Positions 5,112 to 60,341 are shown, counted from the stretch's first letter. The stretch is 64,000 nt of DNA from Camelus ferus (GCF_009834535.1 NC_045696.1:46378001-46442000), one strand, 5' to 3'. A program made the numbers and translations. The notes: a model not told the origin generated them from the letters alone.

Positions 5112-5950
5112 ACAACCTAATAAAAGATGGTGAAAGATTGAATAGACATTTTATCAAAGAAGATAGGTGATGGCTACTAAACACAAGAAAAATTCTCAAC
5201 ATCATTAGTCATTACGAAAATGCATATTAAAGCCACAATGAGATACAACTACACACCTAATTAAGATAGCTAAAATTAAAAAGACTCATCATATCCAGTG
5301 CAGAGAAACTAGAACTCTCATAGACTATGGATGGGAATGTAAAATGGTATAACTGCTTTGGGAAATAGTTTGGCAGTTTATTAAAAAGTTAAACCTATAC
5401 TTATCACTGATTTCATCATTTTCCTCTTATTTATCCAAGTGAAAGAAAACATATGTTCATACAAAGATGAGTACATGAATGTTCATAGTAGATTTATTTG
5501 TAATATCCAGAATATCCATCAACAAGTGAATGGGTAAACACATCATGGTCTATGCTTACAATGGAGTACTATTCAGCAATAAAAAGGAATGAACTGTTGA
5601 TCCATCCATCAACATTGGTGAATCTCAAAATAATTATGCTGATTGAAAAACTCAGGCAAAAAAAGTATGCATACTGTATGATTCCATTTACATGAAATTC
5701 TAAAAAATACAAACTAATCTGTAGTGAAAAAGCAGATAAGTAGTTGCTTCAGAATAGAGAGGAATAGAGGGAGGGATTACAAAGGCACAAGAAAAAATTG
5801 GGAGGATGATGGATACGCTCATTATCTTGAATGTGGTGATGGTTTCACAAGAGTCTCAAACTTGTCGAATTGTACACTTCAAATATGTGCAGTTGATTGT
5901 GTCAATTATACCTCTATAAAGCTGTTAACAAAACAGACTTAAACAAAAAA
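5112..5950 (+). mobile_element. L1M (L1MC/MD-like) ORF2 C-terminus, 3'UTR and A tail; 5'-truncated
   Basis: ttgaatagacatttt...ctcaacatcattagtcatta...gccacaatgagatac...gggaatgtaaaatggta...tcagcaataaaaaggaatgaact...caattatacctctataaagctgtt; possible TSD attaaca (5108-5114 / 5951-5957). Confidence 0.9.
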
Positions 5951-7379: not shown

Positions 7380-7469
7380 AAAAGAATATATGTATGACTA
7401 AAACATTATGCTGTACACCAGAAATTGACACAACATAGTAAACTGACTATCCTTCATTAAAAAAAAAGG
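7380..7469 (+). mobile_element. Extremely 5'-truncated artiodactyl-type L1 (about 90 bp of 3' tail) with 13-bp TSD
   Basis: gctgtacaccagaaattgacacaaca...aactgactat followed by an A tail; aaaccaattcctt at 7367-7379 and 7470-7482. Confidence 0.85.
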
Positions 7470-21238: not shown

Positions 21239-21487
21239 ATTTTTTTTTTAAAAGAGCTTCTTTTTTATTAATTTTTTTCTTCTTTCTTTTTTCTTTACTT
21301 CTGTTTTTATTTGAAGAGCCTAGGTGTGGTTTTTTGTGTTTGTTTAGGTTTTTTTGGGGGGGGGAGGTAATTTAGGTTTATTTATTTATGTATTTATTAA
21401 TGGAGGTACTAGGCATTGAACCCAGGATCTCAGGCATACTAGGCATGCTAAGCCCTCACTCTACCACTGAGCTATACCTCCCCCCGG
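21239..21487 (-). mobile_element. Camelid tRNA-derived SINE (vic-1 type) with a long composite tail
   Basis: Reverse strand reads ggggaggtatagctcagtggtagagtg...cctgggttcaat...tacctccattaataaata...aaacctaaattacctcccccc; TSD gtctctttt at 21230-21238 and 21488-21496. Confidence 0.9.
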
Positions 21488-26130: not shown

Positions 26131-26712
26131 GTAGGAAAAAATAGCTTCTTGAAAGGCCCCTACTGTATATATGAAAGCAAGTACAATTAAAAAGTCTTTA
26201 ACTTATTTAGTTTTTTTGTATTTATGGTGTTTATGAGAAGCCTTTCTTTTCAATTATATGGCTTTTAGCTAACTCAATACCATAAAAATACAATCCTATT
26301 TATTTTTCTATGGTTCTTTGTTTTCTTTGGAAAATATTGTATCAAAACGTATAATTTTTAGTGATGCTAAATTGGCATGAGACAACTGAAATAATAAAAA
26401 TATTTCCTGAATAGGAAACTTGTGCTTTATGTATTTAAGACTCTCCGGATAACTAAAAAGTAAACTTATTTTGTTGTTATTAAAACGCATTAGAGAGATC
26501 CAAGAAAACAAGATAATTGGTTGTATTATTTATTTCACAGAGGAGGTCAGTAACCCCTAAACTAAAGGGTTCCAGAATTTTCAGATTTCAGTCCACAGTA
26601 ACTCTTGTTGGTTAGGGTTACACTCTATCTATAATTTTTGTACATTTGTTTTTAGTGAACAATAAAAGATCAACTTTCAGATCTGTTTGTTGATGCTCTT
26701 TCATATAACTTT

Positions 26713-26855
26713 TTTTTTTTTTTTTTTTTTTTTTGTGGAGGGGAGGGAATTAGGCTTACTTACTTATTTATTTTTAGAGGATGTACTGGGAATTGAACCC
26801 AGGAACTTGTGTATGCTAAGCATGTGCTCTATCACTTGAGGTATACCCTCCCCCC
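26713..26855 (-). mobile_element. Camelid tRNA-derived SINE (vic-1 type)
   Basis: Same head as the copy at 21.3 kb; pure poly(A) tail; perfect TSD catataacttt at 26702-26712 and 26856-26866. Confidence 0.92.
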
Positions 26856-42440: not shown

Positions 42441-44461
42441 CTGCAAGTGCCAATGCCATTTGTCATTTAGGATAAGACTTCAAAGGAAATTGAAAGGAAT
42501 TAAGACCTCCATGGATATTTCACTGTTTCTTTTGGAATATTTAATATTTAATACCTTAACATATAGCTGAATCAACTCTTGATTTGTTATTTATTTAATA
42601 TTCTGCCCAGATCAATAAAAGAGGAATAAAATAACCAGCCAGCATTCCTAAATAAACTGCAGAGAATAGTATTCTTAGTAGTTTGGGCATCCTAGCTCCC
42701 TTTGGAAAGTTATTTCACAGCCTCCTGCCCACTGCATACACACACAGTGGATGGTAGAGTAATATCACTTTGTTCATAGTGAATCACAGCACGGGAAGAT
42801 CTTGTATATTAAACGAGAGGCATATATAGGTTAACTTCTAATTTTGCAGGTGAAGAAACTGAGGCCCAGGTACGAAAGGCTTACTGAAGCTGTAGTGCCT
42901 CGCTGTGTACTTAGTATATAAGCAATATTAGTACATAATACATATGTAGTAAATACCTGGATATTGCACAGCTTTCTTCAGTGTTGTTTTCTTTTCCACA
43001 CAGGAATTGGATTTTACCTTTCTTTTTCCCCAGCTTTGCCCTTGGGCAATTCATTTCCTTTAAAGTGTTGAAATGGAACAGATTTTTCAAGAATACCTAT
43101 TACTTTAGGAAATCACCAGTGATATAGTAAAAGCTCAGGTAACCAGGTTTATTTTTTCCCGCTTTTTGACTTATAGGAAAATAAGCTCCTTTTCTCCCTT
43201 TTGAGAAATTTATTTCAAACAATTTAGTTTAAAAAAAAGGAGCTTCCAAAGAATGAATAGCCTAGGGCCAGTCTGTATACATTTAGTCCAAATGTGCACA
43301 TCTTCATTAGGGTCCAGTGAAAACCGATGCTCACAAGGCTGCCCCTAATGTATGATAAGACCTGCAGTCACCAGTGATTTAATTATGCTCACTGTACGGT
43401 ACTTACTAAAGCAAGAACGTATTCCTTAATACATTTTAGAAAGATTTTCAATACTAGTAGTTGAAACAAAAAGGCCTTATAAGTAAATTTAGTCAGTCAG
43501 ACTAAACTCCTCCTCCAGCCTTTTGGTTAATATAGGTATGATTGTGTGTCTTTCTTCACAGTTTGGAAGCACCCAGTTTTAGTAACCTGAGTCTGGCAAA
43601 ATATGAACAGTAATACCCTGTGAAGCTGTACTTTTAGAGCATCCCTTGCTGCTTTTGCAAAACCCAATAGTCCCAAGTGTCTATTTCCTACTTTATAAGC
43701 ACATTTTACATCAGTTAATAGTGGTTGTATTTTTACATGGCTATTCTTATGTCGTATCTTGAAATCCAGTCTCATGAGCCCTTCATTATTTTTAATGCTT
43801 CATAATGGTGCTTTTAATGATGTTTTTAGTAGGTAACGAAGATACAAATGTATACAGAACTATGAACCATGTATACATGAACTATACAGAAGCATACAGT
43901 TGAAAACTGTAATATGAAAAATAAGTGTAGGCATGATTACTAGTGGGATTAGTCAAGAAGTAGTATTCAGTACAAAGTGTCCATATTTAATTTGAAATCA
44001 ACATGGGATATTGGAAAAAACATGAGATTGGGAAATACAGATTTGTTATGAATACTTGTAGAATTTTAAAATGTAAAGATCTAAAACCCTAACATCTTTA
44101 AATTACTATTTAGAGAGTGCTATAGACATATTTTCTAAAGCTTCAAACAAATTATTTTTTATGTGGCACATCCCAATGGTCATTTTCCTATATTTTTTTC
44201 CTTGTTAATTGTTTGTATCATTATTAAGAGACTGGGTCGAGCTTATCAAACTTTAGAAAGAATGATGGATTAACTAAACTTTATGTTTAATTTTCAGTAT
44301 TTATTTACAAATCATGTGTTGTTTTTCACACAGCAAACTTAACAACCTCTAACAAAATGTGTGTGTGTGTGCCCACAGTTGCCCTTAAAGCCCATAAACT
44401 GGCAAAGAATTGCAAGAAATTAGCGCATTGGGTGTTAAATTATTCATAGTGAATAATAGTC

Positions 44462-46538
44462 TGTCTTAGTCTGTTCAGGCTGCTATAATGAAATACCACA
44501 GACTGGGTGGCTTATAAATAAAAAACATTTGCTTCCTATATTTCTGGAAGTTGGAAGTTCGCGATCAGAGTGCCAGCATGGCCAGCATGGCCCTCTTCTG
44601 AATCGCAGCTTCTTGTATCCTCACATGACAGAATGGCCAATTAAAGGGCGCTACTCCCATTCATGAGGATTCCACCTTTATGGCCTAAGCACTTTCCAAA
44701 GGCCTCAGCTTCTAATACTGTCACATTGGACACTAGGATTCCAACGCATGAATTTGGGAGTGGGGACACAAGGATTTAAACTACAGCATTCTGCCCCTGG
44801 CCCCCAAAAATTCATGAATTTCTTGCATGCAGAATGCATTCATTGTCATCCCAGTAGCCCTCCAGATCTTACTGGTTCTAGCATCAATTCAAAAGTCTAA
44901 AATCTAAAGTCTCATCTAAATATTATCTACATCAGGTATGGGTGAGTCTCAGGGTATGATTCATCCTGAGGCCAAATTCCCCTTTAGCCGTGAATCTGGA
45001 AATCAGTTATGTGCTTCCAAAATGTAGTAGTGGGACAGGCATAGAATTAAACACTCCGGTTCTAAAAGGACAATAGGCAAGAAAGGGGCAATAGTTCCTA
45101 AGCAAGTCAGAACCCAGCAGGACAAACAGCATCAAGTCTTAAGGCTCAAGAATAATCCTTACTTGATGCTCTGCCTGCCAGGTCCACTGGGGCAGGAGTC
45201 CCACTTTCGGGACACAGTAGAGTGTCCCTGCACCCCCCTGGCTTTGCTGACCGCAGCCTCACAGCATCTCCCAGGCTGGAATGGTACACCTGTGGCTCTG
45301 CTGGTTTGGAGTTGCAGTCCTACCCCAACAGCTGTGCTGGGCATTGCCCTAGTGGGGGGCTCTGTGGTGGCCTTGCCCTTGCTCCGCCCTCTGCGTGGGT
45401 CTTGCGCCTAAAACTCCAGGTGTCTCCATTCTTTGAAATTTAGGTGGAGATAGCCACTCTCCAACAGCTCTGCTGGGGAGGATTCTGGCTGCCATGGCTT
45501 TTGGTGGGAGTCTTTTGGCCTGTTGAAACCCCTCCCCACTTTTGAAACTGAACAGGAAGCTCTGATGATCTCTGAATCATCTTACCTTAAATAACGCACG
45601 TGTGAAGCAGAATAGATCTAGGTCTCCCTCCTGTGAATTTCAAGAAGTCCTATAAACAACGTTCGTTTGTTCTGTCTCCTTCCCTTTGGGCTCAAATTGC
45701 CGTTTTCTTCCTGGGGTGGCTGATTAAATCTCTGTTTCATACACATGCCAATCTTCTTATCAAAGGGTCTCTTGGCCACACCTTTAGTCATCTTTTCCAA
45801 ACATGCTTGCTCATTTTTTGTAATATGGCTAAGCCGAGAATTTTCCAGATTTAAAATTTTTGCTTCCCTTTTGATTAAAAATTCCATCTTTAAGTCATTT
45901 ATTTCTTCTCACATTTTACTATAACATTCGAGGGAACCAAGTGGCACCTTTAACACTTTGCTTAGAAAAAGATTCACCCAAATAGAGAATTTCGTTGGCT
46001 ATTTCTGTTTTCCGCAAGACAGTACTAGAAGTTTTTATCTTCCTCAAAACACTAGGTCATGAGCACAGTTCAACCACGTTCTTTGCACCTTTTTAGAACA
46101 ACAATGGTCTTTCCTCCAGTTTTCAGGAACATGTTCCTCATTTCCATCCGAGACTTCATCAGGATGGCTTTAACTGTCCATATTTCCATTAACATTCTGT
46201 TCAAGACCACATCGGTGTTCTCTAGGAAGATTGAGGCTTTCTCTGAAGCTCTTCTCTTCTTCTGAGCGCTCACCAGAGTAACTTTTAATGTTCCGTTCAC
46301 CATAATGTAGGCTTTTTCTAGCATGCACTTCAAAACTCTTTCAGCCTCTACCCGTTACTCAGTACCAATGCCACTTCACTTTTTTAGTTATTTGTTAAAG
46401 CAGCAGCACACTTCTAGTACTAATTTTCTGTCTTAGTCTATTCAAGGTGCTGTGACAGTATCACAGACTGGGTAGCTCATAAACAACAAACATTAATTTC
46501 TCACAGTTCTGGAGGCTAGAAATCTGAGATCATGGTCG
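44462..46538 (-). mobile_element. ERVL-MaLR (MLT1A/MST-type) provirus: 3' LTR 44462-44788, internal region 44789-46428, partial 5' LTR 46429-46538
   Basis: Two direct copies of tgtcttagtc...cacagactgggt...ataaa...ttctgga; PPT (ttctgcccctggccccc) next to the left LTR; PBS-like cttctagtactaattttc next to the right LTR; 5-bp TSD tagtc. Confidence 0.9.

Positions 46539-53992: not shown

Positions 53993-54028
<36 letters not shown>
53993..54028. repeat. (TG)18 microsatellite
   Basis: Perfect dinucleotide run. Confidence 0.97.
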
Positions 54029-54029
<1 letters not shown>

Positions 54030-56094
54030 AAGTAAAGTGTATTTAACAGGTGCTTGCTTTCTCCTTTTCCTTATTTTGGAATGAAAGTAAAACATTACAC
54101 AATTTCTTCATAAATAAAATATTTCCCAACTCTGATGTCAAAATATAAGACTAGTCACATGAAAGCCCCTCATAAACAAAGAGGTTGAGACAGATTAAAT
54201 AATTTTTTTCTCATCCCTCTCCTGTATATTGATTTTATATGAGGAAACTTATTTTAGGGTTCATTGAGATGATTTCCATTTAGTTTAAGGAACTCAGTTA
54301 TCTCAGTGAATGCTATGATAGAATTAATAAAATTCACAAAACATTAGTAGGAGACATTTCGAAATGGAACCAAACCCAAAAGTAGATGTTGCATCAAATC
54401 ATTGGCAATCACTGATTTTAAGAAGTCTTTTTATGTTTAATATTAGCATTTCTTTGATCCAGATGTGTAGTTTACATTGTTATACACTGAAAACTGAGCT
54501 TCAGGGTTTATTTTCCAGTATTAAAGTAAAATGGGAACTTAAAAAATTGAGAATTTGGAAACTCATATAGCAGATATCAGTACCTGAAGGAAGAATCTTT
54601 TTGTCTAGAAAAATTCTAGGTAGGAAACTACTGCGTTTCTCAGAAACAGCATTTTTACTTCCATGGTCTCTCCTACTTGAAAGAAATGTTTTGGTTTCTT
54701 TATAATTGTGAAGTGTTTACTTTTTAAATGTTTGATCTGAACTCAGGGAAGCCTGCAATTTCTAGGGTAGTTAAGCATTTTTTCCCCTGAAAAGAAGTGG
54801 GTCTCTTTGTACTGAGCTTGCAGAGCTGAGTCTGTGTGTTTTGGGTGATCTGAGTAGTTAAATTACCCAGTTATTTGGTATCTTTGTCCCTTAGCACCTC
54901 CTCTTCATAAAGGAAGCTGTAAGGCAAATTAATTGCTAATGAGGAGGAAACAAACCAAAACCAAACAGAGTGAAAAGCAAACAACTTCTGTACCTTTTCC
55001 TTTGAAAGTTTTCCAGGGTCTATGAGTAAATCCTTCCTTGTTTCAACATAATAAATTTATGTTGAAAATAGTTTACTAACTATTAATATAGGGACAAAGA
55101 TACCAAAAAATCATGCAAGGTGGTAGTCCCTAATATTCCTCACTAATTCTGCACATGATGTTGAGGCACTGTATGGAATGATTTTTTTTTTTTAAACCCA
55201 TCATAGGCATTCTCACAGAGTATTCGTGTTTAAGTGATTTCAGGGTAGGAAGTGCCTAAGCATCTGCATTTTTTTTTTACATTTTTTTATTGAGTAATAG
55301 TTATTTTACAATGTTGTGTCAAATTCTAGTGTAGAGCACAGTTTTTCAGTCATACATGAACACGTATATATTCATTGTCACATTTTTTTTTTGCTATGAG
55401 CTACCACAAGATCTTGTATATATTTCCCTGTGCTATACAGTATAATCTTGTTTATCTTTTCTGCATTTTAAAATCCCCAGTCTGTCCCTTCCCACCCCCC
55501 ACCCCTTGGCAACCACAAGTTTGTATTCTATGTCTATGAGTGTGTTTCTGTCTTTTATTTATGTTTTGTTTGTTTGTTTGTTTTAGATTCCTCATATAAG
55601 CGACCTCATATGGTATTTTTCTTTCTCTTTCTGGCTCACTTCACTTAGAATGACATTCTCCAGGAACATTCATGTTGCTGCAAATAGCGTTATGTTGTCG
55701 GTTTTTGTGGCTGAATAGTATTCCATTGTATAAATATACCACATCTTCTTTATCCAGTCATCTGTTGATGGACATCTAGGCTGCTTCCATGTCTTGGCTA
55801 TTGTAAATAGTGCTGCTACGAACATTGGGGTGCAGGTGTCATTTTGAAGTAGGGTTCCTTCTGGTTATATGCGCAGGAGTGGGATTCCTGGGTCATATGG
55901 TAAGTCTATTCCTAGTCTTTTGAGGAATCTCCATACTGTTTTCCACAGTGGCTTTCCTTGCTTCCCTCTCCCACTCTTAATGATTTAGATGTCTTCTTTT
56001 ACAGTTTTGTGTTTATTCTTTTTGTAATTCATGGCAGTTATCTCCTTTCCAGTTATGAGTTTCTTATTTTTGTAGCATCCTACTTCTTTTCTAT

Positions 56095-56973
56095 TTAGAG
56101 TAGACCTGTCAATATTTCTTTTAGCATGGGTTTAGTGTTGCTAAACTCTTAGTTTTTGCTTGTCTGTGAAGTTCTTTATCTCTCCTTCTATTCTAAAGGA
56201 TAGCCTTGCTGGATAGAGTATCTTAGGCTGCATCATTTTTTCATTCAGGACTTTGAATATATCTTGCCACTCCCTTCTGGCCTGTAGTGTTTGTGTAGAA
56301 AAATCAACTGAGAGCCTTATAGGGGTTCCCTTGTAACTTACTCTTTGCTTTTCTCTTGCTGCCTTTAGGATCATTTCTTTATCCTTGACTCTGGCCATCT
56401 TGATTATGATGTGTCTTGGTGTGGGTCTGTTTGGGACCCTCTGATCCTCCTGTATATCTGATTCCTTCTTTAGGTTTGGGAAGTTTTCAGTCATGATTTC
56501 TTCAAATACCTTTCCAGTCCCCTTTGTTCTTCTTCCCCTTCTGGAACCCCTATAATGCATAGATTGGCACGCTTTATATTATCCCACAGGTCCCTTATAT
56601 TGTTTTCATTGTTTTTTATTTGCTTTTCTCTCAGCTGTTCTGATTGCGTGCTTTCTGTTCTCCGGTCTTCTAGGTCACTTATTCGTTCCTCTGCATTATC
56701 TAGCCTGCTTTGCACAGCCTTTAGGTCAGCTCTCATCTCAGCAAGTGAGTTTACTAATTCTATTTTGCTCTTCTTTATAGCTTCTATTTCATTTTTGACA
56801 TATTTTATATCTCTAAACACTATTTCTTTTAGTTCCTTCAGTACTTTGATCAGTCCTTTTTTGAAATCTTGATCTAGTAGGCCATCAATGTCTATTTCCT
56901 TGCTCATGCTTTCAGGAGATTTCTCTTGATCTTTTACGTGGGAGTGGTTCCTCTGCTTCTTCATATTGCTCAT
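56095..56973 (-). pseudogene. L1 ORF1p (coiled-coil/RRM/CTD RNA-binding protein), frameshifted
   Basis: RLDNAEERISDLED, IRDLWDNIKRANLCIIGVPEGEE, ENFPNL, RPTPRHIIIK, ILKAAREK, YKGTPIRLS, ARREW, YPARLSF motifs; frameshifts near 56525 and 56150; stop at 56095-56097. Confidence 0.95.
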
Positions 56974-57099
56974 ATCTCTCTGGCACTGTGGCTTAAGGAG
57001 TATCAGTTATCTAGTTCTCCTGGAGATGGTGTACTCTTAATGATTTTATCGAGAGGTCTTTGTGTCTTCGTCCTGTTTTGCAAACTCAGCTTGCCGTTT

Positions 57100-58298
57100 C
57101 CAGAGGCCCTCTGTGGGCGCCCTCGTCTATGCTGCTCCCAGTGGCTGTTGGTTAGCAGATCGCGCCCCCTCCTAACACTGGGTCAGGAGTTGAGCTCTCA
57201 CTCCCCCTCCTGATGCCGCAATCAGATGCTGCGCTCTGGGGGAGGCAGGTGGGCGGATTGCGCCCCCTCTCAGCACTGTGGTCAGGTGCAGCGCTCCTAC
57301 CAGGAAGCGGGGTGGCCGCCCGCCCTCTCCCAGTGCCGGTTGCTCCGCTGCTCTGTGCTGCTGCCCGCTCCACCTCGGGTCGCTGTTCCGAAGGTGGTCT
57401 TGGGGAAGACCATGGAACGGCCCTGCCCCTGCTCCGTGCCAAATCTCAGCTCCTTGTTTGTCTTGGTGGCATGAGTTCTCTGAGGTGCCAGGGCAGAAAG
57501 ATCCTATCTGCCTCAGGCTGTAAACAAGTCTCAGTCCTACCTAGGAGGTTGCAGAGCCCCTGGGTGCAGATTCAGGTCTTGGCCCCGCCTGCACCCAGGC
57601 CCTGCGCACAGGAGGAGATGGTGGCTGTGGCTGAGCCCTGACTCTTCTCGCTGAGAAGTGCCAGTAATGGCAGTGCAGGTCTGAGGAGACAAAGGCTATG
57701 GCGCCCCTCCCCACAAGGCACACAAGCCGTGCCACTTTGCTTTTTTCGCAATTTATGGGGGCCTGAGGTTGTTCTGCTCCATATACCCTCCCAGCCACAG
57801 CGAGCAGCCCCCTGCAGTCCCCGGGGCTGCCTCAGTGCAGCTGCCCCAGTCCTCTGCCCGGCTCGGGCGGCCTGTCCCGGTCCCAGCTGCCGGCTCGGCT
57901 CGTGTCTTGGGCTGGGTGTCGCGGAGACCCTTTGTGTCCATTTAACTCAGTTCTGTCGGTCAAGGGGTGCTCAGGGCAGATCTGAGCCTCGGAAGCCCCC
58001 CCTCCATCCCGCTGGCCTCTCTGTTGGAGGTGAGGGGCCCAGTGAACAAGCGCCAGTCCTCCTTTGCCGCTCCCTCCCCGCGGGATGGGTCCCGCACTGT
58101 TTGGTTTTTCTTCTTTCTTTTTTCCTTTTCTCCTACCAGATTTTTGGCGTCTTTGTCTTTCGAAGAGGGCGATGTCCTGTCGGAGTTCGGCAGGTACTCT
58201 GGTTGTCTGAGTAGGTCCGTAGATGTGAGTTTTGGTGTATTTGTGGGAGAGGGTGAGCTGCAAGCGTTCTTCTACTCTGCCATCTTGCTTCTCTCTCG
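57100..58298 (-). promoter_or_regulatory. CpG-rich L1 5'UTR internal promoter
   Basis: The most CpG-dense stretch of the window; YY1 site at the element start. Confidence 0.8.
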
Positions 58299-58860
58299 GC
58301 ATCTGCATTTTTAAAAGCGTCTCATGTGATTGTGTTTTGTGGTCTACATTGAGTGATTGATTCAAAAGGAAGCTGCATTGTGGAAACTGTGGCCCCTCCA
58401 AGTTCTGGTTAGTTAAACAAATGTCTCTGAGTAAATATAGCTACTCTTTATATTTGAATATGTTTTCTCCTCACCCCCAACTCACCCCTAAGGAAAAACC
58501 AAACTTGGTATTATTTTGGTTGCTAACATTGCCTAAATTATTTTGAATTGAACCACTGAAATTTCTGGGGTGAGAACTGGGGAAAGTGATTCTAGATTTT
58601 CGAATAGGATTTGCTCTGTCCTGATAAGTTTGTTATTTCTGTTACCCACTCAAGCAGTCAGCTTATCTTTTCACTTTTAAACCAGTTCTAACAGAAAATG
58701 GCACAAGGTCTGGCCAAGGAAACATAATTCTATGCTTAGGTGTATAGAGATCTTTTGCAACATGTGGGATTATAAATAGGAAAAGTCGTGGAAGAACAGT
58801 ATATGCTCCAGGCAGGCTGTAGGGAGAGGGAACTTCAGGATCAGCAGGCTCCGCGACAGC

Positions 58861-58875
58861 AGGTCACACTGACTT
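58861..58875. promoter_or_regulatory. Near-consensus estrogen response element (IR3)
   Basis: AGGTCA-cac-TGACTT, one mismatch from AGGTCAnnnTGACCT. Confidence 0.35.
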
Positions 58876-60341
58876 TTAAAAATACTCAACAGTGTCAGTC
58901 GTGGGCTGGCGTGATCATCCCTCATGCGTCTTTCCTAACTCTTCTCACAATGATGAAGGAACTGTCGAAAGGCACGCTGTAAAGATTCCCTAAGATTTCA
59001 GTCCTGGGGCTTCTGGTCTCCCCATTCTTCTTAGCTGAGGACCCTGGATGACACCTCTCATCCATGAATTTAACCTGTGTGTGTTGGGATGACTCACAGA
59101 TCCTGCTGTCTGCTCAACTTTTATCTAGTTCATTCCATGGTAACATTCCATCACAAACTGGATCTCTGCCAACTTGAGCAAACAGTTTTGCTCCCTCCTC
59201 ATCCTAACTACCAGGACACTCCTCTTTTCCATGACAGTAGGGTAATACTACCTTGTCACTCTGCCCTGGCCTGAAAGCCCTTGGGCTCTTTCTGGGCTCA
59301 TCCCCCAGTTCACTTAACACATCTTACTGTTGCCTAATCATATCTGCCTCATCAAGTGCCCCCGGCATGCAGTGATGATAGTAAACTTGGATGGAAACAG
59401 TGAAGATATTTAGGTTAAAAGGAAGAATAAAATCTTCAAAGAATATCTGTGCAGTAGGAGAAAGTAAAGTGTTAGGAAAAAGGTCAAAGTTTTAAATAAG
59501 CCTCCTGGATTAGAGTATATAGAAGATTTTAATTAAGCATTGTGTTTGATATGTTAGTATAGTTGTATTCTTGCCTATTTGGTCTAGAATCATTCTTTTT
59601 GCTTAGAATTAGCTTAAAAGGAAAAGGAAAAGCTAATAATTAAAGACAAGTTTGGGGGTTCTGTTTTGTTTTTAAAGACATTGTCTTTTTTAGTAGGAGA
59701 TCTCTTGCATATAAATATTACCAGTGCATGCATTCTTCTTGCTATTTGTGGATTATCCATAGCAACCTGGTGACATTTCATTCAGGTCAGTTTTCTTTAG
59801 CTACCAAAGACTCTTTTAACTTCTCTCCAGTTGCTACCTTTCTGACCTGTACTTAAGAAATGTAAAATCGATTTTACTTTTAACTACAAGAAATAGCAGT
59901 AGTAGTTATTTAAGGTTTTATATATTTAAAACTTTATTCAGATTATTTTTGCATATATTTTATCATTTTAAGGAAATTAATTTATGGGAAGAGAGTATTC
60001 CAAAGTGAATTGGAAATGGTTTTCAGAATACTGAATCTAGTTGCCTTCCGTAAGCATGGGCAATGAAGAGCTGGCTAGCATGTCCCAATTACAGATCCTG
60101 TTGGGAACCTTCCATGGTGTCTTAGAAATGCTTGTTTCTACTTGTTTATTAGTGCTTTTCAGTTTTTGGAAGTGTCTACGTGTATCTACTTGTAATTTAT
60201 TTAAAATTCATTTTTATTGCGGAAATATGATTTCTAAAGTTAGGGTTGTAGGATTTTGTTTCTTGCTTTTAAGTCAGATGCTTGGTAACCTCTAGAGAAG
60301 GGTTCGCACGATAAAAATGTACAATTACAAAAAGAACTCAC

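Follow-up and report, generated by a model that had tools for sequence, protein, structure and literature searches.

Structure of the element

The stretch of Camelus ferus DNA analysed here, 64,000 nucleotides in length and referred to below as the window, carries on its minus strand a 3.0-kb element, which is a decayed camel LINE-1 that has kept both ends and ORF1 and has lost nearly all of ORF2. It spans 55274-58298, between exact 14-bp repeats, and comprises the following features in order from the 5' end (positions are counted from the first letter of the window).

58299..58312, minus strand: 5' target-site duplication (TSD), 14 bp; together with the flank it forms a nick site of endonuclease type, TTTT/A, on the plus strand
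56974..58298, minus strand: 5'UTR, 1325 nt; 59% GC, CpG observed/expected 0.48, partial CpG decay, YY1-like core
56095..56973, minus strand: ORF1, broken; Pfam trimer, RRM and CTD domains
55953..56094, minus strand: inter-ORF spacer, 5' part only (142 nt); the final 49 nt align to a pig-like L1 (L004:2854-2902)
55951..55953, minus strand: deletion junction; the A at 55953 probably represents 1 nt of microhomology and the G at 55952 probably belongs to an ORF2 Gln codon
55583..55951, minus strand: ORF2 tail, last 122 codons and stop; begins just past the camel L1 HCWWEC motif
55279..55582, minus strand: 3'UTR; AATAAA at 55291-55286
55274..55278, minus strand: A-tail remnant; 5 A outside the TSD, or 10 A with the TSD's own included
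55260..55273, minus strand: 3' TSD, 14 bp; exact direct repeat

The perfect 14-bp TSD reported by the first-pass annotation is borne out, as the repeats at 55260-55273 and 58299-58312 are identical and none of ~3000 random pairs of 60 x 60 nt windows at the same spacing reached a repeat of this length. The 5' flank of the element together with the repeat reads TTTT/A on the nicked strand; in the accessible text of PMC2912911, TTTT/A is the preferred site of the L1 endonuclease and 14 bp the peak TSD length of full-length L1. With TSD, TTTT/A site and A-tail all present, the element was inserted as a unit by TPRT.

The 5'UTR had also been described correctly as CpG-rich: over 1.3 kb at 59% GC it holds 56 CpG sites, an observed/expected ratio of 0.48 compared to 0.19 for the whole window, while TpG reaches a ratio of 1.2–1.6 in the middle three of five 5'UTR segments. 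A YY1-like core, AAGATGGC, lies at 58286-58279, 12 nt inside the 5' end, in agreement with the YY1 start proposed earlier.

Downstream of ORF1, a spacer measuring 142 nt (about 140 nt had been noted) gives way abruptly, as first described, to the final 122 codons of ORF2 with their stop, which run from 55951. The reported absence of EN and RT likewise stands, since the camel ORF2 C-terminus used as a query found no further match inside the element beyond the tail, and the three-frame translation of the element leaves no room for either domain. In camel proteins the residues HCWWECSLVQ lie immediately before those kept in the element, so the Cys-rich motif was lost together with EN and RT. The missing segment, which takes in the remaining spacer as well as EN, RT and the Cys-rich motif, would measure ~3.5–4 kb, given an ORF2 of ~1275 codons. 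Ordinary Camelus dromedarius L1 is like the element in its ORF2 tail and ORF1, and differs in possessing these ~3.5–4 kb. On the minus strand, the reading frame of the ORF2 tail can be followed back across the junction to an ATG in the spacer (56032-55583), interrupted by a single TAA at 55987-55985; such an arrangement has a one-in-three chance of arising, and no protein with such a start was found.

Comparison of the 64-kb window with itself gave only two short matches to old L1 sequence. An old L1 ORF2 3' end lies at ~5150-5900 on the plus strand, and a 76-nt piece resembling the 3'UTR of the element at 7390-7465 on the minus strand. A much-decayed old L1 at ~51300-48900 on the minus strand, oriented like the element, retains remnants of ORF1, the spacer and the start of ORF2; it was considered as a source of spacer sequence for comparison and rejected as too diverged. 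The window also contains a perfect (TG)18 microsatellite (53993-54028) and two pairs of dispersed repeats that are ~73% identical (21331-21485 with 26710-26855, and 44454-44567 with 46421-46532). AT skew is negative on the plus strand in 30 of 32 bins across 1-64000, a pattern consistent with a long intron of a plus-strand transcript, to which the L1 would be antisense. Pfam matched none of the 100 longest open frames, out of 246 lying outside the element, and so identified no host gene or exon.

Decay and age

ORF1 is present, as described earlier, with its trimer, RRM and CTD domains, but is not intact. Scored against a single intact camel-type ORF1 (P0143), to which it is 78–85% identical, it carries a 1-nt frameshift at ~56528, the loss of two codons at ~56450, the loss of five codons at ~56430 and a 2-nt frameshift at ~56146; the three pieces that stay in frame are free of nonsense substitutions. 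Its present ORF1 thus cannot encode a full ORF1p, which decay after insertion may explain. All four indels are losses, lying within ~400 nt, and the protein comparison suggests that short runs or repeats contracted at these points; for the two frameshifts, an error in the assembly is another possibility. P0262, a second camel-type ORF1 fragment nearer to the subfamily of the element, has the full loop. A loss similar to that of the five codons was found in 5 of 171 scored non-camel ORF1 proteins (240 examined), and is therefore a recurrent passive lesion rather than a family marker.

The ORF2 tail contains three in-frame stops and no indels. Its best matches are Camelus dromedarius L1 gene models (e.g. 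KAB1262767.1), at up to 88% identity in the database search, and it is 82–91% identical to 26 camel-type proteins. It differs from the majority of these at 11 of 122 residues (9.0%), compared to 3.3–12.3% (median 6.65%) for ordinary camel-type tails, a set biased towards stop-free copies and ordinary L1s. A nucleotide divergence of a few per cent would correspond to an age of some millions of years. The element had been called young, a description contradicted by the broken ORF1, the three stops and 9.0% distance of the tail, the 5-A tail and the TpG enrichment of the middle 5'UTR; it is a dead, middle-aged copy, neither young nor an active L1.

Origin of the junction

The junction reads GCAAGGAAAG|CCACTG and falls on an AG, as had been observed; the CAG that the first-pass annotation gave for usual L1 at this point fits the Gln that precedes PLW in camel L1 ORF2. 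One reading is that a spliced L1 RNA of the SpIRE kind, in which a spacer donor was spliced to an acceptor AG within the 3'-terminal part of ORF2, was subsequently retrotransposed. An AG does precede CCACTG, at a position where camel ORF2 has Gln, and spliced L1 integrants exist in human (PMC5860796, in its accessible text). The element resembles SpIREs in being an L1 that lies within a TSD and keeps both ends around an internal gap; however, the classes described in the available part of that paper delete 5'UTR or 5'UTR/ORF1 sequence at GT-AG sites, whereas the gap here runs from spacer to ORF2 and its donor is apparently absent. The Gln codon would allow the missing segment to end in CAG, and the sequence ahead of the corresponding site in an old L1 of the window is purine-rich, with 6 pyrimidines in 22 positions, where an acceptor would have a pyrimidine tract.

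Because an acceptor AG is lost with the intron, an AG at the junction of a spliced RNA would have to end the upstream exon, with GT next in the full-length L1. The spacer of L004, which is the sole homologue compared and is a host-derived contig in a bacterial MAG record rather than a camel full-length L1, aligns to the last 49 nt before the break with 34/49 identities (69%) and no gaps. This score was matched by 1 of 500 shuffles of the whole L004 contig, and a longer, looser alignment by 7 of 1000. Past the shared AGGAAA, the L004 spacer continues TTTAGAC, with no G|GT at the break; the junction G is thus best assigned to the Gln codon of ORF2, and the supposed acceptor AG would have been kept. 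Since only one distant homologue stands behind this comparison, it gives a strong lean and not proof. The AG was probably retained from ORF2, with the preceding A representing a 1-nt microhomology, and we consider it highly probable that ORF2 was lost by deletion without splicing. The splice option among the earlier readings is accordingly disfavoured and in our view extremely unlikely. Fainter still is the chance that a spacer-to-ORF2 splice yields a natural ORF1-only message with a promoter, which was retrotransposed and founded a family, as this requires both that camel L1 gained a G-GT donor absent from the pig-like homologue and that the junction recurs. If true, splicing would be a birth route of half-L1 parasites, linking SpIREs and HAL1.

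The L1 on L004 (2284-2946) lies in a Clostridiales MAG record as host contamination, and its ORF1 has pig proteins as best matches (68–76%). It jumps from the ORF1 RRM into spacer-like sequence, the CTD being lost, and ends in a T-run, after which comes sequence that is presumably an antisense pig SINE. Mammalian L1 ORF1 was also seen in a metagenome contig and two short Streptococcus mitis assembly contigs (L001, L002 and L003), again as contamination of public microbial records.

A family of ORF1-only elements or a single deletion

We put at about even the chance that the element is a dead copy of an ORF1-only (HAL1/RNHAL1-like) camel L1 family, and at even or a shade below it the chance of a hitherto undescribed camel family of the RNHAL1 type that originated by simple deletion; whether the source element made several copies is close to a coin toss. 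Under the family reading, a source L1 would have lost ~3.5–4 kb by a DNA-level or template-jump deletion at ~1 nt of microhomology, and the shortened source would have kept its promoter, ORF1 and 3' end. Its 3-kb RNA would have been transcribed, coated by its own ORF1p and copied in trans into the present site by ORF2p of full L1s, and the integrated copy would later have gathered slippage deletions and substitutions. In favour of this, the break spares the promoter, all of ORF1 and the 3' end and removes ORF2, which is the HAL1 layout as given in the accessible portions of PMC5753468, PMC5786205 and PMC2241872. In addition, members of a family would outnumber one-off deletions of the same shape, so that an example met at random would more often be a family member.

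A source lineage that kept ORF1 while its ORF2 remnant drifted should leave the tail as the more damaged part. The three nonsense changes are indeed confined to the tail, the ORF1 pieces having none (rough P 0.047). Private residue changes number 3–5 of 123 in the ORF1 RRM/CTD against 8 of 122 in the tail (Fisher P 0.14–0.41), the former counted from two comparators and the latter from 26. However, the contrast is gone when all inactivating lesions including frameshifts are counted (P 0.16). The 9.0% distance of the tail falls within the ordinary range and the tail has no indels, and thus there is no sign of a long history without enzyme. Against a family there is also the dead state of ORF1, with both frameshifts lying in it, and the fact that no second junction was found.

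The searches for such a junction had little power. A spacer-derived N-terminus was present in none of the 26 camel-type ORF2-tail proteins (23 have normal upstream sequence and 3 are uninformative), and a spacer-like peptide in none of 138 collected proteins. With the sense frame spanning the junction as query, the best 120 of 8000 candidates scored included no camel-level match covering the spacer, models below 81 residues being out of reach; this is a weak test, since any copy carrying the junction would probably fall under that limit. The antisense junction frame had 2 matches in 1.84 billion proteins, both to unrelated tandem-repeat proteins and hence attributed to chance. At the DNA level no camel L1 was found in viral or genome contigs, plasmids, phages, the genome behind L004 or, among the matches listed, metagenome contigs; the scan of genome contigs recovered 3 non-camel L1 fragments, a 65-nt match in a Fusobacterium plasmid was rejected as a low-complexity chance match, and the metagenome contigs contain at least one L1 locus, with a short unrelated spacer. 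As no camel L1 of any kind came out of the contig scans, their silence on the junction is uninformative.

A large deletion can also arise when RT or second-strand synthesis jumps along a full-length RNA during insertion, or later through microhomology-mediated repair, and by either route the element would be an ordinary full-length camel L1 that suffered a single internal deletion, with nothing mobilised in trans. We regard this as a serious possibility at somewhat less than an even chance. It accords with the single junction so far seen (in searches of low power, which equally weakens the point), with a tail that is colinear and of ordinary divergence, with an ORF1 that was not spared inactivating lesions, and with four other deletions in the same copy, one of which, the five-codon loss, recurs passively elsewhere; it leaves to chance that the break spares all of ORF1 and that the nonsense changes are concentrated in the tail (P about 0.05). 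Internal deletions in the accessible text of 10.1101/2024.08.27.596794 are short and tied to 5' inversions, whereas the element has no such inversion. We think it very unlikely that the junction is instead an assembly misjoin, with a full-length L1 collapsed between two repeat ends. Camel assemblies are partly based on short reads, and the junction is known from assembled sequence alone; yet the 64-kb window contains no N, and the two sides share ~1 nt, which would be too little for an overlap-based collapse. For three coded organism labels, DNA-type runs contain 0.69–0.71 of the words sampled from 54300-59300 (14 of 24 rows, those with small shares being set aside), shares that fit a locus common to close species, do not thereby demonstrate the insertion in each, do not tell flank from element, and have no bearing on the junction itself. 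All four readings (family, one-off deletion, misjoin and splicing) are known kinds of thing.

HAL1 families of mammals were reportedly treated by Smit in 1999 and by Bao and Jurka in 2010. HAL1 ('half-L1') elements contain ORF1 only, lack EN and RT and have several independent origins, according to the accessible text of PMC5753468, PMC5786205 and PMC13756887. The present element is like them in being derived from L1, with ORF1 but neither EN nor RT, both ends kept and TPRT hallmarks; it differs in its broken ORF1 and in that the junction, which in a HAL1 family would recur at many independent loci, is represented here by a single locus. Rat RNHAL1, as described in the available part of PMC2241872, arose from a contemporary L1 via deletion of ORF2, keeping 5'UTR and ORF1, and has about 7500 copies, is still propagating and shares 98% identity with active L1 across the 2600 bases at its 5' end. 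The camel element similarly keeps the 5'UTR and ORF1 of an L1 with ORF2 deleted, but is one decayed copy and retains 122 ORF2 codons. At most, therefore, it works like a HAL1: its structure is real and of a known kind, and its membership is that of a candidate.

No camelid-specific HAL1 and no identical junction was found in the literature consulted; Bao and Jurka 2010, Repbase and Dfam, which lie outside that scope, may list it. PMC8605555 has no mention of HAL1, and its supplements, also outside that scope, may hold a repeat library. HAL1 does not occur in the main text of PMC6675863, whose supplement has 869 matches, the 2 inspected being ancient HAL1ME; PMC6726744 has one HAL1-3_ML match, in a table, and look-ups of terms in PMC5203782 and 10.1101/2025.02.02.635956 gave nothing relevant to camels.

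If the junction is unique, the element is an ordinary scar in a dead L1, useful only as a phylogenetic marker. If it recurs, it would represent a further case in which an ORF1-only L1 parasite arose independently, and a missing entry for camel repeat libraries. Such an origin would be recent enough to read both the parent L1 subfamily and the exact break, and would thus permit a test for selection on ORF1.
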